The notes beneath the pieces are model-generated. The model saw nothing but the letters and a program-made list of their open reading frames with translations. It was not told where the DNA came from and made no database searches. From the IMG/VR virus record IMGVR_UViG_3300027819_000006: 64,000 bases of DNA; one strand, given 5' to 3'. Position numbers and translations under genes: made by a program. Of this stretch, positions 2,412-54,518 are shown piece by piece (the first letter of the stretch is position 1; every line of letters starts with the position of its first letter). Source of the stretch: a virus (Duplodnaviria; Caudoviricetes).

Positions 2412-2415
2412 ATAG

Positions 2416-3024
2416 TTATTTTTCTAAGAATAGATTACACTGATGAATTTCAAAAGCTTGTTTGCATGTGTTTTTACATGTCTTGCATAGCTTTGCTTCT
2501 TTTATCCAGAAATAATAGTTTGATACTTCTTCTAGTACTTTGTTATAATCTATCTCTGTAAATTCATCTGAAACTTTGAGTCTATATATTAGCTTCCATC
2601 CAGTATCTGTTTTCTCTAATATATCTCCAACGTTGAAACTTATATTTTCTTCTGCAAGTTCACTTTTTGATAATCTGTAGAATGTCTCATTTAAAAAGTC
2701 TAATAAGATATAACCTCTTTTTATTGGCACATTGAAAAAGAAGTCAGAAACTTTAATGCATAGAAGAGTAGTCTTTATGTCAAATTTTTTATACTCTAAA
2801 TAGATAGGTTTCAAATTAGTGTTCTTTGAATCACGTTTCTGTTCATTTATGATTTCTTTATGAGCACTTTTAAATTTAGAGACTACACTTTTAACATTTT
2901 CTGTAAAAAATCCACTTCTCAGACTATAAAAATGACTCTTGACAGCTTTGTTTTTTGAATCTACTGGATGCACATCTATTAATTCTAATCTATCCACCAG
3001 TGTGGTACTGTTCTTCTTGTCCAT
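2416..3024 (-). CDS. hypothetical protein
   Basis: 202-aa ORF with C-terminal CxxCxxxC. Confidence 0.6.
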   Translation of the reverse strand: MDKKNSTTLVDRLELIDVHPVDSKNKAVKSHFYSLRSGFFTENVKSVVSKFKSAHKEIINEQKRDSKNTNLKPIYLEYKKFDIKTTLLCIKVSDFFFNVPIKRGYILLDFLNETFYRLSKSELAEENISFNVGDILEKTDTGWKLIYRLKVSDEFTEIDYNKVLEEVSNYYFWIKEAKLCKTCKNTCKQAFEIHQCNLFLEK

Positions 3025-3455
3025 TTTGCTAAATGTCTCTTTTCTTTGTTGTAGTAGTTTCTATATGATTCAACAGCATTTTCTGTTTTGCAATAATCAG
3101 GCATGCATAGAGGAACAGATGTTAGCTCTTCTGAATCAAATTTCAGCAAACGTTTGTTGCTATCAACCCATTCTAATATTTTAGAACAAGCATGAATCTT
3201 GCCATATCTAAAAGTGTATTCATAACATATGTTCTGTGCTAATTTTAACAATAGATTAAAATTTTTTAAACTGTGTCTACACCATTTAGAGCAAGGATGA
3301 TTTTTATGTACTAATTTGTATGGAGCTTCTAAATTCTGCAACCAGAAAGCTGAGCATAACATCTGACAACTTTCAATCTGCATTTTAAGAATGTGGCGGT
3401 CAACATAGAATCTGACCGCCAATTCAGGATTTTCATCTAGATAGAATACATTCAT
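2985..3455 (-). CDS. Pyrimidine-dimer DNA glycosylase / endonuclease V-like protein
   Basis: MNVFYLD..P, KMQIESCQMLCSA, HKNHPCSKW and YRNYY motifs typical of the phage family. Confidence 0.65.
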   Translation of the reverse strand: MNVFYLDENPELAVRFYVDRHILKMQIESCQMLCSAFWLQNLEAPYKLVHKNHPCSKWCRHSLKNFNLLLKLAQNICYEYTFRYGKIHACSKILEWVDSNKRLLKFDSEELTSVPLCMPDYCKTENAVESYRNYYNKEKRHLAKWTRRTVPHWWID

Positions 3456-3459
3456 CTGT

Positions 3460-4257
3460 TTAGAATCTTACTTTAAATCCATTACCATAGAATTGAATCT
3501 TATCATCATGCTTCTTATGTCCAAAAATCAGAGCATCAACAATATTCATTGCATAGATGCCCGCTGCCACATAAGTAGCTCCTCTGCGATAAGTCTTCCA
3601 ATCCTGTCCCTTGAAATTATTTTTCTCAAGTACATAGCAAGTGCCTGCTGCTAGACCTGCAAGAGTTGCTGTAGTTGCATAGAATACTCCTGGTCCAACT
3701 CTACCCTGTCTGATCTGTCCCCATCCAGGATATACAGCACTATGGACAACTGCATCGAATCGATATGCAATTCCCTTGCCTACACTTGCAATAAGAGAGG
3801 GACTATTCTTCTGCTTCTTAAATAGAATATAGTAATGCTGAGCAGCCTTTCCATTCTGAGCAGAAACTTCTGTATAATCAGCAACAAAAGCCAACCCATT
3901 CAATTTTGCTGCATTAAATACGACTGTAGCTTCTGTGGCAAGACTCTCTGCTTGAGCAGTAACTTTTACATAGTCTACAAGATTATCAGTCGATCCTTGC
4001 TGTGTTGCCATAATATATTTACGTACAGCATCTACACGAGCTTTCAGCTTTGCTTGCTCATAATTGACATCAATTGCATCTCCTTTATAATAGTCAAAAT
4101 AATCACTATTGGGAAGTGCATAAACCCATTTAGGAGCTGTAATTACATTAACTACTGTATTTTGATTTTGCTGAAAATTGTAATATGGTTGAGCATCTGT
4201 CTTTGAAGAAACAAAAACTGTCAGCATAAGTGCTGATGCAACAATAAACTTTTTCAT
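3460..4257 (-). CDS. Secreted/membrane protein
   Basis: Signal peptide MKKFIVASALMLTVFVSS; SAVYPGWGQ followed by hydrophobic helices. Confidence 0.6.
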   Translation of the reverse strand: MKKFIVASALMLTVFVSSKTDAQPYYNFQQNQNTVVNVITAPKWVYALPNSDYFDYYKGDAIDVNYEQAKLKARVDAVRKYIMATQQGSTDNLVDYVKVTAQAESLATEATVVFNAAKLNGLAFVADYTEVSAQNGKAAQHYYILFKKQKNSPSLIASVGKGIAYRFDAVVHSAVYPGWGQIRQGRVGPGVFYATTATLAGLAAGTCYVLEKNNFKGQDWKTYRRGATYVAAGIYAMNIVDALIFGHKKHDDKIQFYGNGFKVRF

Positions 4258-4269: not shown

Positions 4270-4941
4270 TTAGCGTTTTAATCGTTTCTCAACTATGTCA
4301 TTACGCTTCTTTTTATATTCTTCAGGCATAATTTCATCTTCTGCATTTTCATCTAGCAATTCATCTTCTAATTTTACTGCTTCTTTACCTATTGCATCAG
4401 ACCATAGATCTTTATATTTTAACTTTAAGCATTCTATTTCTAATGCCAATTCTTTTTTTTCTTTCTGTCTGTTTTTGTTTGTTTGTTTCAGTAACCTTTT
4501 CTTTTCGCACTCTTCCTCCTTTCTAAGATCATTTAATGCTTGACACCTGTCTAAATCTAATTTAAGAACTTCTATTGTAGCATCATCGTCTAAAAATAAA
4601 CATTTAGTTGTTGCATATCTATCTTTACTATATTTTCTATATAGAAAAACATCATAACAAGAACTTCTATTATTTATAACTGATAGAAATTGATAAAAAT
4701 CATTTTTAGTAATCTTAAATTTATATAATTCATGGCTAATCAAAAAATTTACGTTTCTGTCGGAGAAAATATCTAGCTCTACATAGTGGGCTAAACATTT
4801 CTTCCAATTTTTACCACCATAAAATCTGTTTACAATTCCAACTTTTGCTATTGAACCTGTAACATAGTCACCAAATTCTAGCTGAGCAATTTTATGTTTA
4901 ATAGAATGATCTATAATCTCGTTAGTATAGAGCCATTTCAT
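4270..4941 (-). CDS. hypothetical protein
   Basis: 223-aa ORF with charged C-terminus, downstream of a predicted promoter. Confidence 0.6.
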   Translation of the reverse strand: MKWLYTNEIIDHSIKHKIAQLEFGDYVTGSIAKVGIVNRFYGGKNWKKCLAHYVELDIFSDRNVNFLISHELYKFKITKNDFYQFLSVINNRSSCYDVFLYRKYSKDRYATTKCLFLDDDATIEVLKLDLDRCQALNDLRKEEECEKKRLLKQTNKNRQKEKKELALEIECLKLKYKDLWSDAIGKEAVKLEDELLDENAEDEIMPEEYKKKRNDIVEKRLKR

Positions 4942-12836: not shown

Positions 12837-13719
12837 TGTTGAATTGTTTCAATATTGGTATATATAATTTTTTATTACTTCCAGCTGCATAATGTATCAT
12901 TACAGGTGCATTTAACATTTTCTTTTGTATTTTTGAAGTATCTTTTAATTTGGTTAAAATTAATCTTACTTCACCGTTTTCATAAGTAAACTTATTGTTA
13001 TTGTCTTTGATTATTTTTTTAAAATACCAATTCCAAAATTGATCTGCAAAAAAAGATTTTGAAACATAACCATCTTTTTTATATCCATTTTCATATTTGT
13101 AATAGTGTTGTTTAAATATGTTCATTAAAAAATCATTGGCATAAAATTTATTAAGATAGTCAATCATCCTGTCTTCAAACGTATATGTAAATGTTCCTGC
13201 ACCAAGTGTATCTGAGTTATATTCATCAACTGAAATGTCTAATTCAAATATATTTCTATATTCATAAAACTGTTGTGGAATATTGTTTTTATCATATTTA
13301 TTAAACGGTACACGAATAAATGCATTGTCATATTTAAATAATAAAGAAGCATCCTGATATATAACAATATCATCATCTGTCATAACTATCTTGTCTGTCT
13401 TGTCACTGAAGTATATTGGTATCGTAAATTGTGAATTATATCTATAGTAATTAAAAAACAACTTTGCATCTATGTTTAAAGGATTTAATTTACTAATTGC
13501 TTTTGTGTCGATGTCTTTAGAATCATATATACAATAATTATTTTTTATAGAACTACATTTACTATTCATAATCATTTTATCTATTTCTTTTCTTTTGTCC
13601 ACATTTCTAGTATCATTTACAAAATGAAATAACACATTGTTGTCTGTTTCTTTGGGATATTTATATAGTAATAACTCTAACATATCCATATCATTTTGTA
13701 ATATAATTAAATCTTTCAT
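12781..13719 (-). CDS. GT-A fold glycosyltransferase-like protein
   Basis: VMTDDDIVI (DxD) and a late MIHYAAG motif, as in GT8-like enzymes. Confidence 0.55.
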   Translation of the reverse strand: MKDLIILQNDMDMLELLLYKYPKETDNNVLFHFVNDTRNVDKRKEIDKMIMNSKCSSIKNNYCIYDSKDIDTKAISKLNPLNIDAKLFFNYYRYNSQFTIPIYFSDKTDKIVMTDDDIVIYQDASLLFKYDNAFIRVPFNKYDKNNIPQQFYEYRNIFELDISVDEYNSDTLGAGTFTYTFEDRMIDYLNKFYANDFLMNIFKQHYYKYENGYKKDGYVSKSFFADQFWNWYFKKIIKDNNNKFTYENGEVRLILTKLKDTSKIQKKMLNAPVMIHYAAGSNKKLYIPILKQFNIVTKNNKKMLQRNETDNN

Positions 13720-16037
13720 TTGTTTCCGTTTAAAAGATTATCTATGTTCATTATTGAAAAATCAGCTTGATCTTGGGTATATTTCCATGTTTTGAATCCC
13801 AACATTATTTCATTCTTATCATTTTTGTAAAATCTTATTAAATACAATCCATTCAATATCAAATTTTTTATGAATGAATACAATCCTGTAAATATTGGAA
13901 ATGACAATTTTGTATTATTCATATCACTTACTTGAATAAATGCCATATCATTTTTGTTTTTATCTTTCATTTCTCTTTTACTATCTATTTTTACCACTAC
14001 ATATGCTTCCTCATCTTTTGAATTTTGAAATTCTTCAAATTCACATATATTTAAATCTTTAAAAAATGAACATGATGTTTTATGTATTTCATAAAATTCT
14101 ACAATTTTTTTGGCTTGTTTCATCACTTTTACTTCACTTTGTTTGTTTATGAATAAAACATTGCCATACAATTCTTCCTCAAAAATTGATAGTTCATCAT
14201 TAGTGAATTCTTTTACAGCTAAATTATCAGCATCTTTTTCAAATCTATCATGATTTGAAATATATCTTTTTTTTCTTTTTTCATTGTTTTCTGAATAAGA
14301 TGAACCATATAACTCTAATTCATGTATTAATTTATTTCTATTTTCAGTCCCATGTAAAGAATCAAATGCACCAAGTTTAATCAAATTTATGATATTTTTA
14401 TTACCACATTTTAAATTTCTATACAAAAAGTCTCTGAAAGATTTATAATTACCATTTTTTTCTCTATCTTCTATGATAACTGTAGGAGATTTTTCTCCCA
14501 TGCCCTTTATTTTGCTAAATGGTAATCTTATAGAATTTTGTTCAATACTAAATTCTAAAAATGAATTGTTTGTATCCGGTTGTAATATATTAATTTTAGT
14601 ATTTCTTATTTCTTTTACAGCTGTAACAAAATCCTCTTTACCACTATATGATAATGTAGCTGTATAAAATTCAAGCGGATAATGTGTAGCAAGATATGCT
14701 GTTTGATATGAAATCATGGAATAGCTAAAAGAGTGGGCCCGATTGAAAGAGTACCCTGCATGATTCATTATTTTTTTCCACAAATCTTCTGCAACTTCCT
14801 TTTTACATCCATTAACAATTGCATTGCTTACAAATTTATTTTCAAACTCTTTCCATTCTTTGTGAACTTTTTCCATGTCTAAAGACTTGCTTCTTTTAAC
14901 AACAGATTTTCTAAATGCATTTATTTCTGGCCAGGTAAATCCGCCCAATTCTTTACATAAAATCATAAAATCATCTTGAAAACATACAATAGAATATGTT
15001 TCTTTTAAAACTTTTTCTATAATTGGATGTTCATATGCAATCAACTCAGGACTATGTTTTCCTTTTGCATATTCATCCAGCATTCCAGATCTTAATGGAC
15101 CAGGTCTATATAATGCAGCTATAACAGCAATGTCTACAAAACAATCAGGTATTATTTTTTTTGCTAATTTTCTAATACCATTCTCTGTAAATTGAAATAT
15201 GCCACAAAAATTTCCATCTTGAAAAACATGTTTAAAAACTTGTTGATCTTTTATGTCTATATTATTTGGATGAAATCTTTTTACTATTTCTTTGTAGTCA
15301 ATACATTCTTTTTTTGATATTAATCTATATGTATGGTCCAAAACTCTTAATGTACTTAATCCCAACACATCAAATTTTAAAAATCCAAATTCAGACAATG
15401 TTTTAGATGCTACACCTTCAGTATAAGCAGTTTGCATCACTCTTTTACCATCATCTCCAGCAGTAGATTGTAATGGCATTTTTTTATATAAATCATCAGC
15501 AATACATATACCAGCAGCATGTTTACCCAATGATCTATTTTTACCAAACAACACTTTAAATGTTTCTTCAATACCATCAGCAGATTTAACAAAATTAACA
15601 AATGTTGGTGAATATTCTGACAATTCATCAAATCCTATTTTAATCGTAGATTTGTCTTGATCGTTGTTGTCATGATATATTTCAGATAATTCTATAGAAA
15701 TATTTTTTGTAATTTTATTCATTTCTTCAAATGAACGTCCATATATTCTACCAATATCTTTTACTAAGTTTCTATAAGAAAATGTACCATATAAACTTAC
15801 TTGAGCAACATTATCTTCATGATATCTTTGTTTTAGATATGTTTTTATTCTATCTGGATATTCCCAATCCATGTCGATATCTGGAAGTTCTGAATTGTGT
15901 GAAATTATATATGTATTTCCGAGTTGAGATATTTGATATGAATGGACATTTTCAATTTCTAAATCATATACAATTCCATCATAATCTATTTCTTCTATAG
16001 ATGAAACTTTATGAAAATTTACATTTTCAATATCCAA
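13716..16037 (-). CDS. dnaE: DNA polymerase III alpha, C-terminal part, with N-terminal C-intein
   Basis: ELPDIDMD, GKHAAG, LKFDVLGL, ALYRPGP, YSFNRAHS; preceded by ...VYDLEI...ISHN/S. Confidence 0.95.
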   Translation of the reverse strand: MDIENVNFHKVSSIEEIDYDGIVYDLEIENVHSYQISQLGNTYIISHNSELPDIDMDWEYPDRIKTYLKQRYHEDNVAQVSLYGTFSYRNLVKDIGRIYGRSFEEMNKITKNISIELSEIYHDNNDQDKSTIKIGFDELSEYSPTFVNFVKSADGIEETFKVLFGKNRSLGKHAAGICIADDLYKKMPLQSTAGDDGKRVMQTAYTEGVASKTLSEFGFLKFDVLGLSTLRVLDHTYRLISKKECIDYKEIVKRFHPNNIDIKDQQVFKHVFQDGNFCGIFQFTENGIRKLAKKIIPDCFVDIAVIAALYRPGPLRSGMLDEYAKGKHSPELIAYEHPIIEKVLKETYSIVCFQDDFMILCKELGGFTWPEINAFRKSVVKRSKSLDMEKVHKEWKEFENKFVSNAIVNGCKKEVAEDLWKKIMNHAGYSFNRAHSFSYSMISYQTAYLATHYPLEFYTATLSYSGKEDFVTAVKEIRNTKINILQPDTNNSFLEFSIEQNSIRLPFSKIKGMGEKSPTVIIEDREKNGNYKSFRDFLYRNLKCGNKNIINLIKLGAFDSLHGTENRNKLIHELELYGSSYSENNEKRKKRYISNHDRFEKDADNLAVKEFTNDELSIFEEELYGNVLFINKQSEVKVMKQAKKIVEFYEIHKTSCSFFKDLNICEFEEFQNSKDEEAYVVVKIDSKREMKDKNKNDMAFIQVSDMNNTKLSFPIFTGLYSFIKNLILNGLYLIRFYKNDKNEIMLGFKTWKYTQDQADFSIMNIDNLLNGNK
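15894..16037 (-). other. Split intein C-terminal fragment (48 aa)
   Basis: Block F VYDLEIENVHSY; block G HN followed by Ser+1. Confidence 0.9.
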
Positions 16038-17138
16038 TTTTCACCTTCTTTGATGTAGACATTATCATTTAAATTTTTCATATGCCATTTATGTTTGTTG
16101 GCACACAAACTATTGCAATATGTTTTTTTCTTAGAATTTTTCGTAACTTTACCAATAAGAAAATATTCATTACATCCAATACATCTTTTATAATATTGTT
16201 TTTCTAAATATTTTATTGAATCTTCATATTTTAATTCTAAATTTGATATTACATTTATTAACTTGGAATTTACAAGTAATTTATAAAAATCATTTTGATA
16301 TATAACTTTCAAATTTTTTATAAAATTATTTTGTATATATTGATATTTTTTTTCTATTTCTTCTGTTTTAAAGCCCTTCAGTTCTATATATTCATCTTCA
16401 TCTATTATATAAAAATCAGGAGTATATGATTTGAATCCAATATCAAAAGTTTTAGGATGAAAAACGTAATTTTTATTAATATAAATAAGATATCTTATAA
16501 AATTTGCTTCAAAACTTGAGTGACACAATTCATTAATATCATCTCTATAACCAATAAATCCTCTTGAATATATTTTTATTTGTCCATTTGATTGAGCTAA
16601 AAATTGACATTTTCTAGAACAAAATCTTTTTTTTGCAGATGTTTTTTTTATCTATCCTTATATTAAATTATTACAAGATATATATTCACATTTTTTTTCT
16701 ATAGTACTTTGTTGTATTTTATTATTTTTGAATGTTTTTTTACACTCTGTGGAACAAAATTTTTCAGCAGCCATGACTCTTTTATTCAGCTTAGATATAT
16801 AATAAGTTATCCCACAATTTTTACAAATTACTTCTAATTTATTATATTCAAATTTTAATTTGTTCAAGATAGTTGTATTTATATCTACAAATGTTTGAAC
16901 AGCATTTAACATAAATATCATTTTTGTATATTATAAATTTATTTTTGCAAACTATACATTCCTTTTCTATTAATATTGCATTTTGTAAATTGATATCTAT
17001 TAAACTTGTATTTCTATAATTTTTAGTACATTCTATTGAACAACAATTAACATTACCAATTGTATCAAATAAACTTTTACAATTTAAGCATTTTTTCTGC
17101 ATTTTTTCACCTGTTTGAAAGATTATATAATATATCAT
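16019..17138 (-). pseudogene. Fragmented Cys-rich/PD-(D/E)XK endonuclease between the dnaE halves
   Basis: Three overlapping ORFs with repeated CxxC...CSxxC zinc motifs, ending in SSFEANF...YTPDF...IELKG. The last frame extends upstream as KKRFCSRKC, which indicates frameshifts. Confidence 0.7.
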
Positions 17139-17166: not shown

Positions 17167-17445
17167 TTATTTTTTTACCTCAACTAGATAATCGTTTAAT
17201 GTGATATCACATGCTAATTTGTATTCAATTTTATCTTTATTATATACTAATAATCTATGATTCTTTGTACATATTATAAAATCATCATGATATTTTATCT
17301 TCAAAAGCTTTTCTTTCTTGTTGTATTTAAAAACATTTTTTACTATATCTTCACTATTTATATTTTTTACAATGTCATTCTTAATTACTTTATTAATTTG
17401 TTTTACAGAATCATTCATCATTATTTTTGTAGTTGGTACCAAACA
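17167..17445 (-). other. Split intein N-terminal fragment (92 aa)
   Basis: Block A CLVPTTKI; block B CTKNH. Confidence 0.9.
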
Positions 17446-18774
17446 TCTACCTGGACTTAGAAATCGTTCAAACATAATATCATATTTAATAGGATCCAAA
17501 GCTATTATATCTAACAAATGAAGCAATAAAGATCCCCCACCTGATCCTCTTCCGGGTCCTGCTAATTGATTCTGTAAACCATATTTATAAATATCATAGA
17601 TTATATAAAAATATGTTCCCAAATTTCTTTCTTGTATTGTACTTATTTCAGTCTTTAATCTATCTACATATACTTTGTTTACATGTAAATTTCTATCTTT
17701 CAAATTTTTTATAGCAACTTTAGTCAAAATTTGCATACATTCTTCTTCAGACAACTCAATATTGTTTTCATCATATACAACAGGTATTTTTAAAGATCTG
17801 TCTAAATGTATTGTGTCTATGATAGTAGATAGTTGGAATGAGTTATCTATGGCTTCTTCTACATTTATCTTGTTTATATCTTTTGAAAATATACTAGCAG
17901 AAGATAGTATTTCTTCTGCACTCTTCAAATAAAGATTTTCACATTTAAATTCATCATTAACAAGTGTTTCATTATCTAATTTTGTTTTTTCTAGTTCTTC
18001 ATCTGTCATATTCATCATTTTATTACCCTCAAGCATCTTAAGTATATCATAAATTTTATGATGCTCTTGTTTAATATAATGAGAATCTGTAGTAACTATA
18101 TAAGGTATTTTTAAAAATTTATTTATTTTCAACAATATCTTGTTGTATGTATCTTGCCATGGTATTTCATTAAATTGTAATTCTAAAAAGTACCTATCTC
18201 CAAATACACTTTTCCACCATTCTACTTCTTTCACAACATTATTTATATTTATATTTTTGCCATCTGTAGAAGCAATTCTACTAATTGGTCCTGCAATACA
18301 AGAGCTTGTAGTTATTATACCTTCATTGTATTTTTCTAGTAATTTTTTGTCTATTCTTGGTTTTCTATAAAATCCATATTTATGTGATAAAAAATTGAGT
18401 TGAAATATATTTTCCAACCCAACATTATTTTGTGCCAATAATACTACATGTGCATAACTATTTACCTTTTTTCTTCTACCTTTTAATTCTTCTTTGCTTA
18501 AAGTTTCTTTTAATTCATCTAATTCTTTTCTATCATTTGCATTTTTTTCCAAATCATTTACTAAATATGCTTCAATACCAAAAATGTGTTTAGTTACAAA
18601 ATTGTTCTTTTCTGCAGCTGTATAAAAATCAGCTATACCATTAAGATTACCATGATCTGTTAGTGCAATTGCATCTATATTTTTATCAATAGCAGTTTTT
18701 ATAATTTCTGCAGGTTTTGCAAGTCCGTCCTGAATACTTGCATCTGAATGATTGTGAATAGATGCATATTTCAT
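17167..18774 (-). CDS. dnaE: DNA polymerase III alpha, N-terminal part (PHP domain), with C-terminal N-intein
   Basis: HNHSDAS, ALTDHG, GPGRGSGGGSLL, FERFLSPGR, then CLVPTT. Confidence 0.95.
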   Translation of the reverse strand: MKYASIHNHSDASIQDGLAKPAEIIKTAIDKNIDAIALTDHGNLNGIADFYTAAEKNNFVTKHIFGIEAYLVNDLEKNANDRKELDELKETLSKEELKGRRKKVNSYAHVVLLAQNNVGLENIFQLNFLSHKYGFYRKPRIDKKLLEKYNEGIITTSSCIAGPISRIASTDGKNININNVVKEVEWWKSVFGDRYFLELQFNEIPWQDTYNKILLKINKFLKIPYIVTTDSHYIKQEHHKIYDILKMLEGNKMMNMTDEELEKTKLDNETLVNDEFKCENLYLKSAEEILSSASIFSKDINKINVEEAIDNSFQLSTIIDTIHLDRSLKIPVVYDENNIELSEEECMQILTKVAIKNLKDRNLHVNKVYVDRLKTEISTIQERNLGTYFYIIYDIYKYGLQNQLAGPGRGSGGGSLLLHLLDIIALDPIKYDIMFERFLSPGRCLVPTTKIMMNDSVKQINKVIKNDIVKNINSEDIVKNVFKYNKKEKLLKIKYHDDFIICTKNHRLLVYNKDKIEYKLACDITLNDYLVEVKK

Positions 18775-34282: not shown

Positions 34283-34324
34283 TTGAATTCTCCCGTTTAA
34301 GTTATAACCATTTTGTAATGTTTA

Positions 34325-34353
34325 AATATAAACAATCTATGAACGAATGTAAA
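34325..34353 (-). promoter_or_regulatory. sigma70-like early promoter
   Basis: TTTACA-17-TATATT. Confidence 0.75.
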
Positions 34354-34424
34354 CAAAAAAGATTAAACTCCGACAAAATAATTCATCAGAGCTTTTAATT
34401 TTCTACCTTATTCACAGATAAAAT

Positions 34425-35318: not shown

Positions 35319-35912
35319 CTAAAATTGTTTAATATATGTGAATGATGCTCTTCTAAGTACTTTGTCAGCATAATTTGTAGTGCTAAATTTGTTTCCTTTA
35401 TTGTATCTCTCTAATGCTCTTACTAGATTATTGTTTTCTATTTTCAGACACCACTCTAAATGATTGATACCTGCTTTCAGATTTTCTTTTGTATTGTACA
35501 GATCATAACCTCTTACTCCATATATTTCAGCTGTAGCAGGTTTTACTTGCATCAGACCACGAGCATTTTTATTAGATTTACTATTTGTATTGAAATCTGA
35601 TTCTATGCTGATAATGCTGAAAACTATTGCAGGATTGATTTTCTTGTTTGTAGACATAAAATAGATGTATATAGCAAGAGTAGTATCAATTTTAAATTCT
35701 TTGGCATAAAGTTTAGATTTATTTATATGTTGTTCGAGTATTTTTGTTCTATGTTCTATGTCCTGTATTTTAGAGTTCAGTTCTGATATCTTTGTATTAT
35801 TTTTATCGATAATTTCTAATTTCTTTATGTAGCTCAAGCTACACACCATAAAGACAAAAATAATAAATACAGATAGAGAAATCTTTATAGTGAATAGAGC
35901 TTTAAACAGCAT
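35319..35912 (-). CDS. Membrane-anchored lytic transglycosylase (SLT)
   Basis: N-terminal TM helix and coiled coil; IESDF, ARGLMQV, ALERYNKG. Confidence 0.85.
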   Translation of the reverse strand: MLFKALFTIKISLSVFIIFVFMVCSLSYIKKLEIIDKNNTKISELNSKIQDIEHRTKILEQHINKSKLYAKEFKIDTTLAIYIYFMSTNKKINPAIVFSIISIESDFNTNSKSNKNARGLMQVKPATAEIYGVRGYDLYNTKENLKAGINHLEWCLKIENNNLVRALERYNKGNKFSTTNYADKVLRRASFTYIKQF

Positions 35913-36636
35913 TTTCTAGAGTAATAAAAAAATCTTTTTCTAAATTTAAATTAGAAGCATGACAAATTCCAGAGCCATTAACAATAGCTAAACGTCTAGC
36001 CTTTACATCAGAAATCCATTTAGGATTTGCAGTTTCTGCTCTTTTAATAGCTATTATAGTAAGTTTTTGAACTTCATCAGTTATATTCTGTTTTACAAAA
36101 GTTTGCAATATATCTAATTTCATTGTATCAGAAATTCCACCTTGCTGTGTTCTCAAATCGAAGAACATCGCTGCCGCTCTTTGAGACTTAACCTGGTATA
36201 TTGGCATCATAGCCAAAGCTTTATCAAATACATTTTTAGCAACTTTCAACTGAATTTGTTGCATTTCATTAGTCTGACCTAATTTATAGAATCTATCTTT
36301 CCATTCTGGTAATATTTTATTATTTGTTTGTATTGCAGCTGACCAAGCTACTTGTGATTGTATATCTGTTTTATTCAACATCTCTTTAAAAGTAGCCGAA
36401 CCATTGCCAAAAATATTATCTACTATAGCACTATGACTCTGAATCATTTCTTTTAAAAGTGGTTGTAATGATCCTTGTCCTAAACAAAATTGTAAACATC
36501 CAAATGAAAAACCTTGTCCGTCAAAATTTCCACTCATGCCACTATAACTTTCAAGTGGCATTTTACCTGTCTCTATAAAACTTGTAAGAGCTACACACTT
36601 CTCTAATAATGTAGAGTCTTTATTTAATCTATTCAT
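35902..36636 (-). CDS. Lysozyme-like peptidoglycan hydrolase (putative endolysin)
   Basis: FIE...YSGMSGNFDGQGFSFGCLQ pattern; adjacent to SLT; ATG at 36636 follows a GGAG RBS. Confidence 0.55.
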   Translation of the reverse strand: MNRLNKDSTLLEKCVALTSFIETGKMPLESYSGMSGNFDGQGFSFGCLQFCLGQGSLQPLLKEMIQSHSAIVDNIFGNGSATFKEMLNKTDIQSQVAWSAAIQTNNKILPEWKDRFYKLGQTNEMQQIQLKVAKNVFDKALAMMPIYQVKSQRAAAMFFDLRTQQGGISDTMKLDILQTFVKQNITDEVQKLTIIAIKRAETANPKWISDVKARRLAIVNGSGICHASNLNLEKDFFITLENAV

Positions 36637-37477
36637 ATAATTCTCCAAAGTTTATTAACATCACTTTCCCATATTCTAACTAATTTATAACCATATTTTT
36701 TAGCTAATTCATTTTTTAATTGATCTATTTCTATTTTTATTTTCTGAAATTCGTTTACTGGTCCATTTGGATAATATTCAGGATTACAATGATGATAATT
36801 GCCGTCTACTTCTACTAGTATATTAAAATCTTGTAAATAAAAATCATAATATCTGTTTTCGATCTTGAATTGATTTTCATACCTAATATTACTTTCTATA
36901 TTTTTTCTACTGATTCTTCTACTTTTGAAGTTCTTCTATGCCAATCTTTAGCTACTTTTTCTTTCCACATTTTTTCAGCTATTTCTATACCAAAACTTTT
37001 AGCCCAAAAATCTTTGACTGTTTTGCCATACATCACATTCTTTGAACCTTTTTTATCATCTGACATTTTTAGCAATCTATCATCTGTATTCTTATTTAAC
37101 CCGTCATTCCAGTTTTTACCACCATTTTCATAAAATAAAATCATGCCTGCAGAAGTTTTATTTCCATGTATTTTTACTCTCTCATCTGTTTCTTTTGTAA
37201 GACCTTTATTCCAAGCACCCGATTTGACAAAACCAATTTTTAAAATGCTATTACGACATCCATAACATCTATTATTAGGTCCTTTCACTTCTTTATTACA
37301 GTCATTTTCTATACATTTATATTTATCTAATTTCAGAATTTCAAACCAATATTTTTTAGAATTTACCTTATGTTTTGCTCCAACATGACCAAATAAAGCA
37401 TTATAGCTTTTGAAAACTTTCTTGCAAATAAAACATGATGGTAGTGGATTATTACTTTTATATTCACTTATATTCAA
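36633..37477 (-). CDS. Zn-finger/NUMOD3 + Vsr endonuclease (frameshift near 36900)
   Basis: WNKGLTKET and WNDGLNKNT repeats; the shifted frame continues YYDFYLQD..LVEVDGNYHH...LVRIWE...LWRII*. Confidence 0.8.
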
Positions 37478-37497
37478 TCTATTTCTCCTATAATAAA

Positions 37498-37583
37498 AGC
37501 CAAGCAATTGTAATCTACAATAGACTATGAATCTAGTAGTTGCTTGGCTCAAACTATTGGTTAAGTTTATTGTAGATTACAAT
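37498..37583 (-). promoter_or_regulatory. Structured two-stem leader, copy 2
   Basis: Inverted repeats 37498-37507/37540-37549 and 37507-37522/37568-37583. Confidence 0.75.
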
Positions 37584-37619
37584 ATAAATATATTTATAAG
37601 AGAAATAAATGCAAATCAC

Positions 37620-37769
37620 TCACTGCTGGATAGGGCCATACGAAATTCCCATGAGATCGAAATTTCCAGAAATGCAGCTGTAACACTCGGGTGGCATCTT
37701 ACTGTTTTCAATAAATCCAGTGAGACAGACTACCTTTTCTAATAGAGATGAATCTTTAGTTAATTTCAA
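37620..37769 (-). pseudogene. Truncated duplicate N-terminus of the lysozyme-like gene
   Basis: MKLTKDSSLLEKVVCLTGFIENSKMPPECYSCISGNFDLMGISYGPIQQ*; 29 of 48 residues identical to the start of 35902..36636. Confidence 0.9.
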
Positions 37770-38756: not shown

Positions 38757-39640
38757 TTATCCATTCTCCTGTAAATAATCATTTGTGATTTCTACTAATA
38801 GTTTGTCTATGGCTTTATCATTTGGTGAATACGGCAGATCACTAGTTTCATACAGCTCTTCCATTTCTTTATCATATTTCTCAGCAATTTCTATGATCTC
38901 TTCATATGTATATTTACCATTTCTAATAGCTAACAGTTCTTCTCTGTCATGCTCTCTGTAAGTAATAACTTGTTTATCTCTGTATTTCTATACCCATTCT
39001 CATGAGTCTGAAAAGATGAACACAGTGTTTTGTATCTACTTTATATTTTTCCTCTAACTCTGCTCTTTCTTTATTTCTGTTTTGCTTCCAATGCTCATAC
39101 TGTTCATATTTCTTTTTAGCATTCTCATATGCATCTTTATCAAAATAGTATCCGCCATTTTTAGTATATTCTTTTGGAATATCAAACATATTTGTTTCTA
39201 GCTTTTTCAGGTATTTCTCTGGTTCTGGCTTTGGCGGAGGATTATCTATCCAAACTTTATGCCCTTTTACTCTCTTAAGTTGACTATATGCGTAACCTGC
39301 GAAGCGGTGACGTGCTAATTTTGATAAAAATATATCTCTATTGTCAACCAATCTTTGTCCATTTGTCGCAGAATAGAATATTTTTAGGGTGTGAAAATAA
39401 AAGTTCTAAAACATTGGGATTGCAGTCTCTTGCAAGCTGAACAAACTTGTTTATAGAATATATTACAGTATCTGGCTCTTTATATTCTTGTTGCTCAAAT
39501 TTGTGCAGTCCATAGTAGAATTCTCGAGGTGCTATGCAAATCCCACGTATGTCTTCATCTGACAAAGAAGTAGAAATTCCATAGCCTATGCTGCCAGATA
39601 TACATTTGAAAATAGTTCTTTTTTCAATCCAATCAAACAT
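38757..39640 (-). CDS. Pol-beta-type nucleotidyltransferase, broken by two frameshifts
   Basis: GSIGYG...SDEDIRG, CNPNVLELL, FAGYAYSQL, HLFRLMRMG, then a shifted frame ELLAIRNGKY. Confidence 0.75.
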
Positions 39641-39842
39641 TTTTAATCCTTGTCATAAAATCTACAACAGCTACAGAAATATTTTGTAACAATTCTAATA
39701 GTTGTGTTTTAATTTTATCGTTGAAATCTTTAGAATCAAAAATGTAAGCGTTCATTTTCTTTATTTCATCTGGAATAGTTATAAGATTCTCAGACATAGC
39801 TGACTCCTTTGAAAGTTTTTAGCAACCATTTTGTAATGTTTA

Positions 39843-39871
39843 AATATAAACAATTTGCTATGAAAAGTAAA
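39843..39871 (-). promoter_or_regulatory. sigma70-like early promoter
   Basis: TTTACT-17-TATATT. Confidence 0.7.
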
Positions 39872-39880: not shown

Positions 39881-40048
39881 TTAAACATCAATTATGGACT
39901 CTAAATAGTAATTTGGTAACATATCTTTGTTCATTTTCAAAATATTGTTAAAACATGAATCTAAAATGTAAGTATTTGCATAATCTGTATCATTTCTTAT
40001 AGATCTACCGCAGCCTTGAAGTATCTCGACGATCGTCTTCCACTGATA
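39881..40048 (-). pseudogene. Orphan duplicate C-terminus of the DinG-like helicase
   Basis: YQWKTIVEILQGCGRSIRNDTDYANTYILDSCFNNILKMNKDMLPNYYLESIIDV*; 36 of 55 residues identical to the end of 41364..42977. Confidence 0.92.
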
Positions 40049-40052
40049 ATTG

Positions 40053-41237
40053 CTATTTGCAGCTGCTTTCTTTGTCAGAGGGATTATAAACTCCTCTGTG
40101 CAGAATGTTTAAAGCAGCATTATAGTCTGCATCTAAACTTAGACCGCATTCCAGACATAAAAATTTATCTAATTTCCTATTTTCTTTATGTTTGAATCCA
40201 CATGAAGAACATTCCTGACTAGTATAGAAAGAAGAAACTTTCTTCAACTCTATACCCTGTTCTTCACACATCGACTGTAATTTTGAAATAGTTTTTGTAT
40301 AAGACCAATATTGCATTTTATTATTCATTTTCTTAGAATATTTTGATTTGTGTTTTACATTTTTCAAATCTTCTAAAACAACAATGGAGTTATTATAAAA
40401 ATCAATTTTATTGCATATTTCATTGATCTTATTATCTTTAAAAATAAGATATTGCTTATAATTTATAGACCCTCGTTTCATATTTGATAATTTAGTATAC
40501 AATTGTTTCATTTCTACACCATAGACATCATTGTTTGAAGAAACTAGAAGCTTATCATACCCGATGTCAAAAGCAACAGCAGCTTGCTGTTGTTTCAGCA
40601 TTATTTCTTTTTCATAAATAAATGTAATATAAAAATTACCATGTATTTTTCTTAGCAATATCGTATTTTTTCTATTCCAATTTTTGTATTTTAAAGATTG
40701 TTTATGTTGTTTGATAGGTAGATTAATTTTAAAAGCTCTTCTTTTGCTTTTTAAATATGGTAATTTTATGCCTATAAATTCATCAAAATGAGATGAAGAT
40801 TTATCATAACTTATAATTCTATAATCCATATTTATGCATATGTTTTTTATATTGATTCGTATTCTTGAAAATATATGATTTAATCGAAGCTCTGAAAATC
40901 TTTTACTCAGAAATTTTAACTGTCTATTATTTTTAGCGAAATATTTATAGCATTTTTTATATCTACTATATCTTTTATTTCTAGCATATCTAATATTAGA
41001 GCGTATTATTTCAGAAGCTTGTTTATGTATTATCTGTTTCCATCTTGAGTGTATTATTATGTTTGAGCTAACAGATTCAAAAAATTTAGCACTATTTAAG
41101 TCTGGTTTTTGCTTCAATATTTGTTCTATATAAAATATAAGATCTGTTTTATAGTCTTCAAAAACTTGCTCTAGCTGCTCTATCTTATTCTTATTAGAAA
41201 ATTTTAAAATGTGAGTGCTGCTTCTTTTTATAATCAA
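40053..41237 (-). CDS. tnpB: TnpB / Cas12f-like RNA-guided nuclease
   Basis: RuvC-I AFDIG, RuvC-II VLEDL, Zn finger CSSC..CLEC, RuvC-III DADYNAALNI; no tnpA nearby. Confidence 0.9.
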   Translation of the reverse strand: MIIKRSSTHILKFSNKNKIEQLEQVFEDYKTDLIFYIEQILKQKPDLNSAKFFESVSSNIIIHSRWKQIIHKQASEIIRSNIRYARNKRYSRYKKCYKYFAKNNRQLKFLSKRFSELRLNHIFSRIRINIKNICINMDYRIISYDKSSSHFDEFIGIKLPYLKSKRRAFKINLPIKQHKQSLKYKNWNRKNTILLRKIHGNFYITFIYEKEIMLKQQQAAVAFDIGYDKLLVSSNNDVYGVEMKQLYTKLSNMKRGSINYKQYLIFKDNKINEICNKIDFYNNSIVVLEDLKNVKHKSKYSKKMNNKMQYWSYTKTISKLQSMCEEQGIELKKVSSFYTSQECSSCGFKHKENRKLDKFLCLECGLSLDADYNAALNILHRGVYNPSDKESSCK

Positions 41238-41257
41238 GTATATATCTCAAATAAAAA

Positions 41258-41334
41258 TGCCAAGTATTGGATCTTAAAAGACTATATGTCTAAAGATACT
41301 TGGCAGTTGATGTCAAGCCTTTTAAGATCCAATA
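41258..41334 (-). promoter_or_regulatory. Structured two-stem leader, copy 3 (in front of tnpB)
   Basis: Inverted repeats 41258-41267/41296-41305 and 41265-41280/41319-41334; inner AGAC-N5-GTCT hairpin. Confidence 0.8.
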
Positions 41335-41363
41335 ATAAATATGAAATATAGAATAATGCAATA

Positions 41364-42977
41364 CTAAGCATCTATTATGGCATCTAAAAAATATTTTGGA
41401 AATAAATTTTTGTTCATTTTTAGCATATTATCGAAACAGGAGTCTAGAATGTAAGTTTTAGCATAATCATTTTCACTCCTTATAGATCTACCATAAGACT
41501 GTAATATTTCTGCTACAGATTTCCATTGATACCAGTCAGGCATAGTTTTCAATCTTTTCTTTACTTTTGGTGATGCTAAATTTGGAAATGGCACTTTGAC
41601 TATAATCTGAAATCTAGACAAGTCGTCTTTCAAATCTATACCATTTGTCATAGACGGAGATACAATCACTGAAGCATTTGTTGATTCATAATGCTCTTGT
41701 AGCTTGTCTTCTCTGTCATCTATATCGTGAAATATCAATCTATCATTATCAATACTGTGCATAATGATATTAGATATTTCGTAGCTATTAGTATGAATTA
41801 TGCCTTTTTCATTTTTGTGCTTATTCAAAATTGTATTTATAACTTGAGGTAAGTCTTTATAAGTATCATGTTTCTCTCTGTATGACAGCTTACCGATATC
41901 TAAATTGTACACCAATCTATTCTTGACTTCAAATGGAGAATCTAGACTCATATATGCTACATCTTGTTTTAGACCCATGTAATTTTTGAAGAAATTTTTA
42001 TTAAGAATAGTACCAGACATGAATATTACATGATCATAGTTCTTCCATATCATTTCTAGATGATCTTTGCCCCAGACTAATTCTGTTTTCAACACAGTCA
42101 AACCATCTTTATCTTTCTCTTTATAAAATACCCATTTTTCTGTATTATCTTCAGATTCATTTATAAATCTGTTAAATTTACAAATTACTTTATCTAAAAA
42201 TGAATAATCTTTTAATATTTTCAATTTTACATTTTGCACTGCAGCTAACTTGCATTGTTCTTTCAATTCTTTGTATCTAATATTTAAAACTGGTATTAGA
42301 TCATCAGTTACAAATTTAATATAAGTTTCTATTGATCCAATTCTATCAAGCTTAGACAGAAGTCTTGCATTTTTTATACCCCATCTGTTCATAGAACTTC
42401 TAGATATTGTGGAAGAAATGAATTCACAGAACACTTCTTCAAATGAATGTGCTTCATCTACGAATAGAACATTAGAACATCTTTTTTCTATAAATGTTGG
42501 AACATATATTAAATATGATAAGTAGACATGAAAATTTGCTAAACCCACTTTAGCATTTAAAAATTCTTCATATGCAGCTTTAGATGGACAGAAACTGCAT
42601 TCTGTTTTATTGAGCTTGTTTAAATCTTGTCCATCATCACAAGTCAGATTCCATTTTTCGCAGTTATAGTTATTCTTACCTTTGATACTTCTGATGAAAT
42701 CAAAATCAGCAGTATATTGATTTTGTAGAATTTTAGTATTAGTTAGAATATCAAATTTAGCATTTTTATCTATATTCTCAACATACCACTTCATTGCCAT
42801 GACAGCAAAATAACTCTTACCACACCCTACAGAAACGTCTAATAATAAAAATTTCTTCTTAGAATTGATTGACTCTTTGAAGAAATTTAACATCTGGTCT
42901 TGTTGCTGTCTTGGATTATGCTTTAGAGTGATCATAGAAAATAAATGAATGCACCTATTATAGGAATTTTGCTCCAT
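41364..42977 (-). CDS. DinG/XPD-like SF2 helicase
   Basis: VGCGKS, VDEAH, FMSGT, IIHTNSY, GIDL, KVPFP, QSYGRSIR. Confidence 0.88.
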   Translation of the reverse strand: MEQNSYNRCIHLFSMITLKHNPRQQQDQMLNFFKESINSKKKFLLLDVSVGCGKSYFAVMAMKWYVENIDKNAKFDILTNTKILQNQYTADFDFIRSIKGKNNYNCEKWNLTCDDGQDLNKLNKTECSFCPSKAAYEEFLNAKVGLANFHVYLSYLIYVPTFIEKRCSNVLFVDEAHSFEEVFCEFISSTISRSSMNRWGIKNARLLSKLDRIGSIETYIKFVTDDLIPVLNIRYKELKEQCKLAAVQNVKLKILKDYSFLDKVICKFNRFINESEDNTEKWVFYKEKDKDGLTVLKTELVWGKDHLEMIWKNYDHVIFMSGTILNKNFFKNYMGLKQDVAYMSLDSPFEVKNRLVYNLDIGKLSYREKHDTYKDLPQVINTILNKHKNEKGIIHTNSYEISNIIMHSIDNDRLIFHDIDDREDKLQEHYESTNASVIVSPSMTNGIDLKDDLSRFQIIVKVPFPNLASPKVKKRLKTMPDWYQWKSVAEILQSYGRSIRSENDYAKTYILDSCFDNMLKMNKNLFPKYFLDAIIDA

Positions 42978-45333: not shown

Positions 45334-46320
45334 AAAATCTTCAATTCTTTTAATTTATTTTTATCCCATAGTTCGATTGGAATTTTGATACACTCCTGTA
45401 ATAGTGCAGGATATTTTTCACTACCATCAAACCATCCTTTAACCTCTATTATTTTTAATATTTCCTTCTATATCATAAACTATAAAATCTGGTAAATAAC
45501 TTCTATCTCTTATTATACATATTCTAAATTGTTCATATTTCCAAATAATGTTATTATTGTCGAAATATTTAGCGACTTTTGCTTCCCAAGTAGATTTAAA
45601 ACATATACCATTATAATATATTTTCTTTCCATGAGCTCTTGGTTTGCCAAATCTGGGATTTTTAATCCCTTTGGCCACTCCCTTTGATTTTCTTGTATTG
45701 GAAACACTATTTGCTAATTTTATCAGCCTAACATCTGTTTCTTTAGTTAGCCCTTTTTGCCAAGATGTCCAGCCATTAGCTACTAATTCTTTTTTTCTAT
45801 CAGACATTCTTTTTTTAGTTTCTTCAGAATGATTTCTACCATAAAAAGAAGCATTCTCGCCTGTACAGGAACCTGTCAATATTTTAGTCATGCATCCTTT
45901 TTCATGCCATTCTCTAAATTTTTCATCTGTATCTTTAGTCTTTCCTTTTTGCCAATTCACTATATTTCCTAAAGCATACCCCTCTTTTATAACTTTCGAC
46001 ATATTGCTTCTATATTCTTCAGAAAATATTCGATGAGAATTTCTACAACCATAACACATATTGCACTCTGCTTTAACTTCATTAAGACATCCTTGAACAG
46101 CGCAATAATATGTTAAAGAAGCTACACATTCAGAGCATCTATCTCCTCTATATCCAGTTACTTTGCTTAATATATCTCCACAAGTAGTGCATCTTTTTCT
46201 GTTTTTATTATATTCTGCTGCTTCACATTCTTTGCAAAATTTACTTTTTCTTCTACCATCATAAATATTGTTGCATATATCAAAATTTGAACATTTCGTT
46301 ACTCTCATCTTCTTCTCCAA
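45330..46320 (-). CDS. Cys-rich/NUMOD3 + PD-(D/E)XK endonuclease (frameshift near 45445)
   Basis: WQKGLTKET repeats; FKSTWE...YLPDF, then a shifted frame IIEVKGWF. Confidence 0.78.
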
Positions 46321-46321
46321 C

Positions 46322-46415
46322 TAGTAAAGCCGATTAGTATCATCCTGATAGGGTATCCTACTGGCTAATCGGCTTTACTACAAAGTATATTTATGATTAA
46401 CCTATCAGAATGATA
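46322..46415 (-). promoter_or_regulatory. Structured two-stem leader, copy 4
   Basis: Inverted repeats 46322-46337/46365-46380 and 46338-46352/46401-46415; covaries with copy 1. Confidence 0.85.
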
Positions 46416-46449
46416 ATATAAATATACTCTTGGAGAAAAATAGTACATT

Positions 46450-49860: not shown

Positions 49861-51034
49861 CTAAAATGTTAATTGCTGTGATTTGTTGTTTATAATACAA
49901 TTTAAATCTTCTTTAAATAAAATATGATATATTTTAGATTCTTTTTCATATAAACGCAAAAAATTTGCTATTTTTACTTTGCTGTTTTCATATGTATAAA
50001 TTGATTTAACTTCTTCTATTCTTATCAAATTATCATTTTCGTCATATATGAAAAAATCGGGAGTATATGTAGTTCCATCTAGTTTATAAGTTATTTCTTC
50101 ATATTTTGATATAGAATCTAAAAATTGAGCTCTTTCTAGTTCATAAGATGATTTTAAATATGTTTTGTTATATATTTTGTCCATCTATCAGTATTAGTGT
50201 ATTTATCATGCCACATTAATAAAGCTGTTTTCAAACCATATTTTTCAATCCAAACATCGAAAACAGATTTACCATACATTCCATTATTTTTACCATAAGT
50301 TGGGCAAGTTTCGCCTGTCAGACCTAATCTGTACGGAATAATTTCTCCTGAAGCATATTTTATTTTTAATGCGTCAGAAATATTTTTTTACATTCATCTG
50401 ATAGAGGAATTCCAAAACTGTGTGATAATTCTCCAGTAAGACCTTTATTCCACTGAATTCTGCCATTAGCAAATTGATCTTTTAACGTTATAGATACATT
50501 TTCTGACTGTTTTCTAACTCCGTCGCTAGTTTCTTTAGTGAGACCAGTATTCCACTGAATTCTTTCATTGGCAAACTGATATTTTAAAGTTTCTGAAATC
50601 TGCTGCTTCTCTTCTTCAGTGTGTAATCTTCCAAAATTATGGCATAGTTCTCCAGTCAATCCATAATTCCATGCATTTTCTCCTCTAGTTTTTTCATTTC
50701 TGTCTTCCCATCTCCCACTTCCTTCTTCTTCTCCATATTTTTCTATTATTACATTTTTTATTCCTCTACAAAAGACACTATGTTCTGACATATATTCAGA
50801 TAATTTGTAGTTATTACACTTCCGACATAGTTCTGCACTTCTGTTCTTTTTGTTTCCACATTTGCAAAATTTTAAAGATAGATAATACGATAAATTAGTG
50901 TTATTTTTTATTTCGATACTGAGATCTTCTATTTTATTAATGTTTTTATCTATTTTATAGTCACATTCTTTACAAACATTAGTAATATTGTTGAGCGATA
51001 ATTTGTTTGTGTTGCATATGCTGCATAATTTCAA
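49861..51034 (-). pseudogene. NUMOD3 + PD-(D/E)XK endonuclease with several frameshifts
   Basis: WNxGLT(G/K)E repeats in 50366..51034; LKSSYE...YTPDF...IEEVK in 49861..50184; shifted frames link the two. Confidence 0.75.
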
Positions 51035-51046
51035 GTTATTTCTCCA

Positions 51047-51128
51047 AATAATAAAGCCTATAGTAATTGGTACAGAAATAATATTGCTATTAAGTCTTCA
51101 CTATAGGCTTTATTATTTCTGTACCAAT
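51047..51128 (-). promoter_or_regulatory. Structured two-stem leader, copy 5
   Basis: Inverted repeats 51047-51064/51100-51117 and 51066-51080/51114-51128. Confidence 0.75.
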
Positions 51129-51146
51129 ATAAATATATTAAGAAAA

Positions 51147-51908
51147 TTAAAATACAAGCTGTTGCGATTTATTAGGATTTCCCAAGCTTGTACTTGTACT
51201 TGAGATACTGCGAGAAATGAATGCACACAATTTAGCCAATTTACCAGGACTAGCCTCACCAACATCAATGTACTGAGTCAAATTAGCTTCATCTTTAAAC
51301 TTATTCAGCACGTAACTACAAATTCCATCTTGAGTGTTAATTCCTACTAGAACTGTGATCATTGACTCAAGCTTCTCTTCTTTTGTCACTTTTGCAACCT
51401 GATCTCTAATCATAGATGGAGTAACTCTTGAAGCATTATCTACACCATCAGTGATAATAAACATAATAGCATTTACAGTATAGTCTTGATCAGATAGCAA
51501 CTGTCCATATTTTACAGTGGAAGCTACTGCATCAAATGTGGCATCATATAGAGAAGTCATTCCTCCGCAGTTGAAAGGAAGATAATCTTTATCTACATCA
51601 ATTTCATTTAAATTCTTGAATCCATGAATCTCCTTTACTCCAATTCCAGAATTGAATTGGAGAGCTCGTACAAGAATATTTTCAGACTTTGGTGCTTTCT
51701 TGCAAGAATTGACTGCACTTTTAAGTGCATCTAAAAGATTGTTTGCAAATGGTTCTACTGAACCTGTAATATCTGTTACGATTGATACAAGAGTATATTC
51801 TGTTTCTGTTAGAGCATCAGGTCTGACAGCAGAGAATGTAAATGATCCATCTGCAGCTGTGAAATTCTGCATGCTACCATCTGCATTTTGATTAAGGAAC
51901 TTAGGCAT
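51147..51908 (-). CDS. von Willebrand factor A domain protein (TerY-like)
   Basis: DITGSV (MIDAS-like), GGMTSLYDA, FIITDG. Confidence 0.85.
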   Translation of the reverse strand: MPKFLNQNADGSMQNFTAADGSFTFSAVRPDALTETEYTLVSIVTDITGSVEPFANNLLDALKSAVNSCKKAPKSENILVRALQFNSGIGVKEIHGFKNLNEIDVDKDYLPFNCGGMTSLYDATFDAVASTVKYGQLLSDQDYTVNAIMFIITDGVDNASRVTPSMIRDQVAKVTKEEKLESMITVLVGINTQDGICSYVLNKFKDEANLTQYIDVGEASPGKLAKLCAFISRSISSTSTSLGNPNKSQQLVF

Positions 51909-54317: not shown

Positions 54318-54398
54318 TGCCAAGCTGTGTACTCCAAAATAGACTGTTAAGTCTAAAGGCAGCTTGGCAATAGATTTATGAATCTATTTTGGAGTACA
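54318..54398 (-). promoter_or_regulatory. Structured two-stem leader, copy 6
   Basis: Inverted repeats 54318-54327/54360-54369 and 54328-54343/54383-54398; inner TAGAC-N6-GTCTA hairpin. Confidence 0.82.
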
Positions 54399-54518
54399 AT
54401 ATAAATATATTTGACAGAGAAGAAAAGACACTACATTGTAAAACTCCTTTTATTTGGTTGGTTGTTTTGATCTGTCTATTCTATATAATATTTGAGTATA
54501 GTTTTATAAACTCTATTT

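Follow-up and report, generated by a model that had tools for sequence, protein, structure and literature searches.

The 64,000-nucleotide stretch analysed here (the window) is taken from IMG/VR record IMGVR_UViG_3300027819_000006 (Duplodnaviria; Caudoviricetes), a huge phage of 271,887 bp from groundwater metagenomes, and the analysis concerns a tnpB gene that lies between two versions of the end of a helicase gene at positions 39,881 to 42,977. The window has a G+C content of 29% and its minus strand holds nearly all genes. Its replication genes encode a split family-B DNA polymerase, DnaB, ribonucleotide reductase and RecA, and many nuclease genes are present besides.

The tnpB gene between two helicase ends

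Read along the minus strand, the locus consists of a DinG/XPD-like helicase gene, a spacer of 126 nt, tnpB, a further 4 nt and a copy of the helicase end without a start (Table 1). The resident helicase gene matches the phrog_2488 DNA helicase (E=1e-85). An earlier reading of the letters of the window (the original prediction) had described tnpB as flanked by two versions of the last 55 codons of this gene with 36 of 55 amino acids identical, and this was confirmed by tblastn (66% amino acid identity over 56 positions, E=7e-20; 73% identity in DNA), as was the onset of the orphan copy 4 nt after the tnpB stop codon, where homology sets in abruptly at TATCA behind the TAG. The orphan fragment by itself matches Helicase_C_2 (E=7e-7). 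The junction lies 10 codons upstream of motif VI (QxxGRxxR; QGCGRSIR in the orphan), in agreement with a predicted target just upstream of this motif. Among 120 helicase relatives, a block of the form S-x-K-I-K-K-R-L-E-T-x-P-D/E-W-Y is strongly conserved before the junction; ahead of the orphan, a KKRLETxPDW-type block is absent and its place is occupied by the end of tnpB, so that the junction is sharp. Nineteen further open codons upstream of the orphan were attributed to chance, as they are read in another frame than the overlapping end of tnpB and contain no conserved helicase block.

The resident and orphan ends can be aligned across 55 codons with no stop and no indel, and their proportions of nonsynonymous (pN) and synonymous (pS) differences are 0.16 and 0.72, which argues for purifying selection and for alleles of sister lineages rather than for an in-place duplication that decayed. 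A rare Q (YQW, as against YNW in 98 of the 120 relatives) and a 2-residue insertion are shared by both copies, which likewise points to sister lineages as their source. Judged by these features, the two helicase ends are evidently alleles of sister lineages and not the remains of a decayed duplicate. The orphan carries a Y-to-C change at a residue that is invariant across the 120 relatives and in 89 of 119 comparisons lies at a greater distance from the family consensus than the resident end does, consistent with a recently stranded fragment on which selection has ceased. Some helicase relatives are about 650 amino acids long (among P0090, P0105, P0110 and P0114) and at least one has an intein splicing domain (PF14890); the helicase family is therefore also targeted by protein-level mobile elements.

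Residues D224, E289 and D369/D371 of the tnpB product, together with the zinc-finger cysteines C343, C346, C361 and C364 (CxxC...CxxC), are invariant in an alignment of 28 proteins of its clade, so that the three acidic residues of the RuvC site are intact as predicted and tnpB, judged by its catalytic residues, evidently encodes an intact TnpB. A profile of the clade searched against the PDB matched Cas12f (E=3.5e-22) and ISDra2 TnpB (E about 9e-11). The clade is frequent in large phage contigs (382 confirmed stretches from IMG/VR, 534 from metagenomes) and rare in 185,000 cellular genomes at an identity of at least 35%, where the few matches were all to contigs of metagenome-assembled genomes. 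A paralog (L002, 67% identical) is present elsewhere on the same phage, at an intergenic site without a duplication. The predicted lack of tnpA was upheld: no Y1 transposase (HUH) motif was found in window open reading frames (ORFs) of at least 90 amino acids, and PF01797 was absent from 5 phage records carrying the clade, 2 of which are at least 96% complete. Two more tnpB genes of other clades lie in the window at 56059-57312 and 59614-60882; their products show about 22% identity where alignable, and both match PF01385 and PF07282.

Table 1. Coordinates of the features discussed; positions are those of the window except for the L079 rows, which refer to that contig
Feature	Position	Strand	Description and basis
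Orphan helicase end (old allele)	39881..40048	-	No start codon, no helicase sequence upstream, same stop position
Predicted guide template, CAGTGGAAGACGATCGTCGA	40026..40045	-	First 16-20 nt of flank; right-end boundary and published guide rule
Terminal motif AGCAATTAT	ends at 40046	-	Conserved right end of the element
Right-end/omegaRNA 3' module (predicted)	40046..40132	-	Covariance model; inside and just past the ORF end
Covarying hairpin	40076..40098	-	Within last tnpB codons, encoding HRGVYNPS
tnpB	40053..41237	-	TTG start, 394 aa (amino acids); PF07282, E=7e-20; RuvC D-E-D triad and zinc finger intact
Cassette leader	41238..41363	-	AT-rich promoter-like motif, two interleaved stems, T-run, TTG start
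Resident DinG/XPD-like helicase gene, complete	41364..42977	-	537 aa; PF13307, PF04851; family alignment
Resident version, last 55 codons and stop	41364..41531	-	Includes motif VI (QSYGRSIR)
Resident counterpart of guide, mismatched	41509..41528	-	
TAT in resident helicase	41529..41531	-	Presumed motif like a target-adjacent motif
Complete lysin-like gene	35902..36648		
Orphan lysin N-terminus	37620..37769		49 codons; 62% aa identity
L079, tail-tube gene	ends at 2918		
L079, tnpB	2995..4071		
L079, right end (...GGTAATCGT)	ends at 4094		Followed by gene-end copy

Right end, predicted guide and target motif

The right-end boundary was set with pairs of near-identical elements lying in differing contexts, which lose similarity right after ...[AG][GT][CT]AAC/T-TAT, and this ...AAC/T-TAT terminus was found in more than 40 distinct loci. 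A covariance model built from 27 other loci, with this phage excluded, matched positions 40132..40046 over its full length (74 bits, E about 8e-10) with its end at 40046, and the same model placed the module of the paralog L002 at the end of that element. Both sides of the first hairpin change in 6 of 7 pairs (24 loci), and in most subfamilies a second hairpin follows the first. The original prediction had described an element with none of the ATTCC/GGAAT end hairpins seen at 59599-60995; no classical left end was recognised, and the picture had to be revised for the right end, which is of IS605 type and recognisable by its hairpin and terminal motif. The fold of the whole scaffold is not significant (z=-1.2) and the hairpin could instead serve TnpA binding on DNA; no Rfam family was matched at gathering or E-value thresholds. 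The locus has the nuclease and the right end of the IS200/IS605 family of insertion sequences (IS) and, in this copy, neither the left end nor TnpA of that family.

In ISDra2 the guide comprises about 16 nt of the flank, with cleavage 15-21 bp away from the target-adjacent motif (TAM) (PMC8612924). TnpB is known to cleave only where a TAM and a match to the guide occur together, and an allele so cut is mended from the copy that bears the IS. Because the right end is followed directly by the first orphan base, this established TnpB biology indicates that the guide would be read from the old allele, as originally proposed. The start of the guide differs from that proposal: the TAT is part of the right end of the element, where it overlaps a conserved Tyr codon, and the guide register is therefore moved by 3 nt, so that with the right end at 40046 the predicted template begins at 40045 (CAGTGGAAGACGATCG...). 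In this register (CAGTGGAAGACGATCG(TCGA), 40045..40026) the resident gene is mismatched at 8 of 20 positions (3, 9, 10, 12, 13, 15, 17 and 18), the count of 7 in 20 given earlier being correct for the earlier register; these mismatches would render the resident copy immune. Two near matches to the guide with 3 mismatches each occur in the window and were set aside as probable chance matches, having no adjacent TAT.

The sequence just outside the left end of related elements is AATAT, ATTAT, TGTAT, TTTAT or GATAT in independent contexts of four subfamilies, and since all of these end in TAT, the TAM is probably about NNTAT, of the same kind as the TTTAT of the characterised Geobacillus TnpB. 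At the homologous point the resident helicase gene reads TGGTAT|CAATGG, with TAT directly preceding the counterpart of the guide. In other subfamilies the two ends of the element do carry repeats related to each other.

The leader ahead of tnpB contains an outer stem formed by 41319..41334 with 41265..41280, a perfect 16-bp inverted repeat, and an inner stem formed by 41296..41305 with 41258..41267, a perfect 10-bp inverted repeat. The leader of the paralog L002 (5900-6000) has the same layout, with the inner stem kept and the outer stem changed yet complementary. Interleaved stems (X-Y-X'-Y') also precede the NUMOD3 genes ending at 46320 (46310-46430) and 51034 (51025-51150), and a single long stem precedes the NUMOD3 gene ending at 54337 (54325-54420). 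All three NUMOD3 leaders follow the motif ATATATTTATATT (GTATATTTATATT ahead of 46320), and a motif of this type also stands ahead of the tnpB leader stems; allowing at most one mismatch, ATATATTTATATT occurs 11 times against 2.8 expected. The claim that this tnpB has the leader of the protein-guided nucleases was accordingly sustained for the NUMOD3 genes of this phage with respect to layout but not to sequence, as a similarity search with the leader returned only the locus itself and the likeness to the other leaders lies in the layout and the promoter motif. A promoter and terminator scan gave no more matches than in shuffled sequence. The inner stem of the tnpB leader followed by the T-run is terminator-like, and the outer stem could block its formation.

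Related loci and other duplicated gene ends

The original prediction had called for a search for tnpB genes flanked by diverged duplicate gene ends. Duplications were sought by comparing 0.9 kb after tnpB with 3 kb before it in 106 full-length loci and then in 22 more, and among these roughly 125 related loci, a sample of the more than 900 that the clade has in viral and metagenome collections, one independent phage, L079, was found with the same anatomy. On this 20-kb IMG/VR contig the TnpB is 34% identical to that of the window and the host gene is a tail-tube gene (phrog_45), which at the homologous point reads CAATAT|GGATAT and so contains a perfect AATAT. The two gene-end copies of L079 have a pN of 0.04 and a pS of 0.67, with nearly all differences synonymous and no stops or indels. 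Synonymous changes affect 7 of the first 9 codons past the junction and 4 of the 21 codons after these (p=0.004, post hoc).

A few members of the clade have Y1 TnpA genes nearby. One such gene is on the viral contig of L078, a locus with a TnpB sharing 72% identity with the L079 protein, so members of the clade could be moved in trans by canonical transposition.

Two further kinds of duplication were rejected as different in nature. In L036 and L037 an HNH gene and tnpB together lie between copies of an SNF2 helicase end, with the right end of the element off the duplication boundary, and the duplication in L195 consists of tandem small paralogs. In L036 (region 1564-4489), which comes from another phage, the SNF2 helicase gene is long enough for a possible intein-like insert, and its C-terminal ~70 codons are duplicated.

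Within the window itself, a zinc-finger, HNH-like nuclease gene (36896..37552, minus strand) sits between a lysin-like gene and a copy of its N-terminus, and this arrangement (35902-37769) is the mirror image of that at tnpB; insert-and-replace footprints are therefore not unique to tnpB in this phage.

Two other genes of the window appear to be divided. An RlaP-type nucleotidyltransferase (PF10127, a model of 249 residues) at 38974-39640 is apparently divided into two ORFs overlapping by 8 nt, 39344..39640, whose match is confined to the N-terminal part of the model, and then 38974..39351; either a frameshift or a split gene may be the cause. ORFs 17167..18774 and 13716..16037 correspond to the first and the second part, respectively, of a single PHROG model of the family-B DNA polymerase, and the ~1.1 kb between them, partly covered by ORF 16019..16528, may be another insertion.

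Proposed homing and its alternatives

On balance, the tnpB cassette probably represents an RNA-guided homing element, or gene drive, in an essential helicase gene. It is a tnpB-only cassette of IS605 type of about 1.3 kb that begins next to, or a few bases from, the stop codon of the helicase gene and is made up of a phage-type promoter and leader, tnpB, and a right end joined base for base to the last 54 codons of the allele of a sister lineage. A guide RNA would run from the right end into the flank, carrying CAGUGGAAGACGAUCG..., and in a co-infecting relative with the old allele (TAT and guide sequence) the cut would fall 15-21 bp inside the target, shortly ahead of motif VI. Through repair off the cassette-bearing genome, with the helicase body as one homology arm and the orphan plus the downstream DNA as the other, the relative would acquire tnpB and the mismatched, resistant gene end, and its own gene end would be stranded as an orphan that doubles as guide template and right homology arm. 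The net effect would be an RNA-guided version of intronless homing. The homing interpretation of the original prediction thus keeps its anatomy and its mismatched resident copy and gains a defined right end, with the start of the guide and the supposed lack of that right end corrected.

Such a structure is likely to have arisen, by a simple route requiring nothing beyond established steps, from one IS copy at a TAT adjoining the stop codon (TAG-TAT in the window, TAA-AATAT in L079) and another at the in-gene TAT, followed by a single crossover within the IS between two co-replicating genomes, which would leave a whole gene on the left and the gene end of the other genome on the right. Such an origin is as compatible with a static leftover as it is with a drive.

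In anatomy, the nearest known counterparts are the mobile endonuclease ORFs of fungal mitochondria that replace the C-termini of genes, such as Allomyces atp6 and Glomus atp6, atp9, cox2 and nad3 (PMC3630166). Gene body, foreign in-frame C-terminus, endonuclease gene and native remnant are identical in arrangement, and the two ends are diverged alleles, as they also are in L079; the fungal elements are protein-guided and often fused in frame, whereas the element described here would be RNA-guided and its remnant would encode the guide. As with the free-standing homing endonucleases of T-even phages (SegF, SegG, MobE), a nuclease gene lies beside a conserved gene, and the logic proposed is that of T-even intronless homing, in which the gene of a co-infecting relative is cut, the donor is protected by substitutions and the flanks are co-converted; unlike in those systems, specificity would here come from an RNA guide and a duplicated gene end is present.

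In the TnpB-omegaRNA systems of IS200/IS605 elements (ISDra2, ISGst), TnpB is known to restore its own transposon after excision (restorative homing). With these systems the locus has in common a RuvC-type TnpB and a right-end motif similar to the presumed left-flank TAM; a guide taken from the flank, an RNA scaffold spanning the 3' end of the ORF and the right end, and a cut that triggers copying of the element by recombination are predicted for the phage locus. It differs in lacking tnpA in cis and a left-end hairpin that could be recognised, in residing in an essential phage gene that stays complete thanks to a second, diverged gene end, and in having as its predicted target the allele of another genome and not the element's own excision site. 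IS605 TnpB has been shown to act as a gene drive in multicopy plasmids, where IS-less copies are cut and the element spreads without TnpA (PMC11870625), a process named non-restorative homing in PMC13565253. A guide that records the insertion site, cleavage of IS-less copies and independence from TnpA would be shared with that drive, which operates in dispensable DNA, unlike the present cassette with its replacement gene end. Spread into co-infecting phages was described in a 2026 review as only theoretically possible (PMC13565253), and no report of TnpB in this role was found in full-text searches of the literature.

Several observations weigh against homing. The architecture occurs in only 2 of the ~125 sampled loci. 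The enrichment of mismatches is not significant over the 20-nt guide (p=0.13) and becomes so only for a 36-nt stretch chosen post hoc (p=0.003). The copy in the window is without the second right-end hairpin, with a gap of 16 nt relative to the model, as are the 56%-identical relatives L003 and L009. No classical left end, and no left-end hairpin like that of the right end, was recognised in this copy. The NNTAT motif is itself deduced from flanking sequences, and since ATTAT at the end of the element itself is of similar form, the occupied site is assumed to be protected by analogy with published TAM/TEM pairs, in which the right end carries a motif 1-2 positions off the TAM (Meers preprint).

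The searches for intermediates weigh in the same direction. Contigs of four groundwater and sediment runs over the locus had the same arrangement only, with no joint skipping tnpB; assembly breaks at the repeated leader, which is shared with the paralog locus, and at the repeat near 39825-39871. A protein search for helicase relatives reached a best identity of 48% and gave no comparable empty site, no uninterrupted old allele was found in the source metagenome or IMG/VR, and no RNA run containing the tnpB region was found. In IMG/VR, the search for close helicase relatives returned a single distant match, and degenerate-codon and exact searches for the old allele or relatives of L079 returned the contig of L079 itself or nothing. 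A comparison of the canonical copy L019 with a related record, made in search of an empty site, showed rearranged flanks only. With no empty site, RNA run or classical left end found, homing is a prediction from the sequence. The short intergenic repeat at 39825-39871, just downstream of the orphan, recurs at 34306-34374, and short-read assemblies break there.

Among the alternatives, the one that survives best is that the arrangement is a static by-product of IS biology, in which two copies at TAT sites ~180 bp apart in co-replicating genomes recombined by a crossover inside the IS without any spread by homing, TnpB at most performing its usual restoration of the element after excision or doing nothing. 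Both junctions lie at TAT (TAG-TAT after the stop codon, TGG-TAT in the gene), Y1 TnpA genes are found near some clade members and in one case on a phage contig, the architecture is rare and no empty site was seen, all of which speak for such a by-product. We nevertheless regard it as unlikely, since the guide would then necessarily match the unrearranged allele and a drive would follow unless TnpB were inactive, and its catalytic residues are intact; furthermore, the copies are diverged alleles and no fresh duplicate, and recurrence in a second essential gene suggests that the structure is retained or selected.

It is improbable that TnpB with its fixed guide is a domesticated weapon, retained for marker exclusion against the helicase gene of competing sister phages and not copied into them. 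Such a weapon would account for a phage-type promoter and leader in place of a recognisable transposon left end, for the loss of the second right-end hairpin and for the mostly phage-borne distribution of the clade; however, arms on both sides make copying the expected repair, which renders exclusion and homing hard to separate, and the orphan shows no sign of selection and has a Y-to-C change at an invariant residue. Least credible is a duplication made first by a protein-guided homing endonuclease whose cassette was later entered or replaced by tnpB: although such a cassette exists in the same phage (the lysin N-terminus around 36896..37552), L036 combines an HNH gene and tnpB between SNF2 helicase-end copies and the tnpB leader resembles those of nuclease genes, no second nuclease gene or remnant lies between the helicase-end copies, the right end of L036 is off the duplication boundary, and exact contact of right end and orphan, seen here and in L079, would rarely be expected twice from random insertion.

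Extending the homing interpretation, it may tentatively be proposed that a phage TnpB lineage swapped its left end for the promoter and leader of a phage nuclease gene and now spreads purely by RNA-guided homing within essential genes, carrying a resistant gene end and retargeting itself with each invasion. The gene end of the invaded lineage, left beside the right end, would reprogramme the guide against the newly invaded population.

If homing is correct, this locus and L079 would be natural cases of an RNA-guided nuclease acting as a free-standing homing endonuclease in essential genes, in which the replacement gene end removes the cost of insertion and the stranded native end supplies both the guide template and a homology arm. 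Such elements would bridge transposon-type and homing-type selfish strategies, would represent a compact design for a self-retargeting drive and would account for one source of the mosaic gene ends of huge phages.

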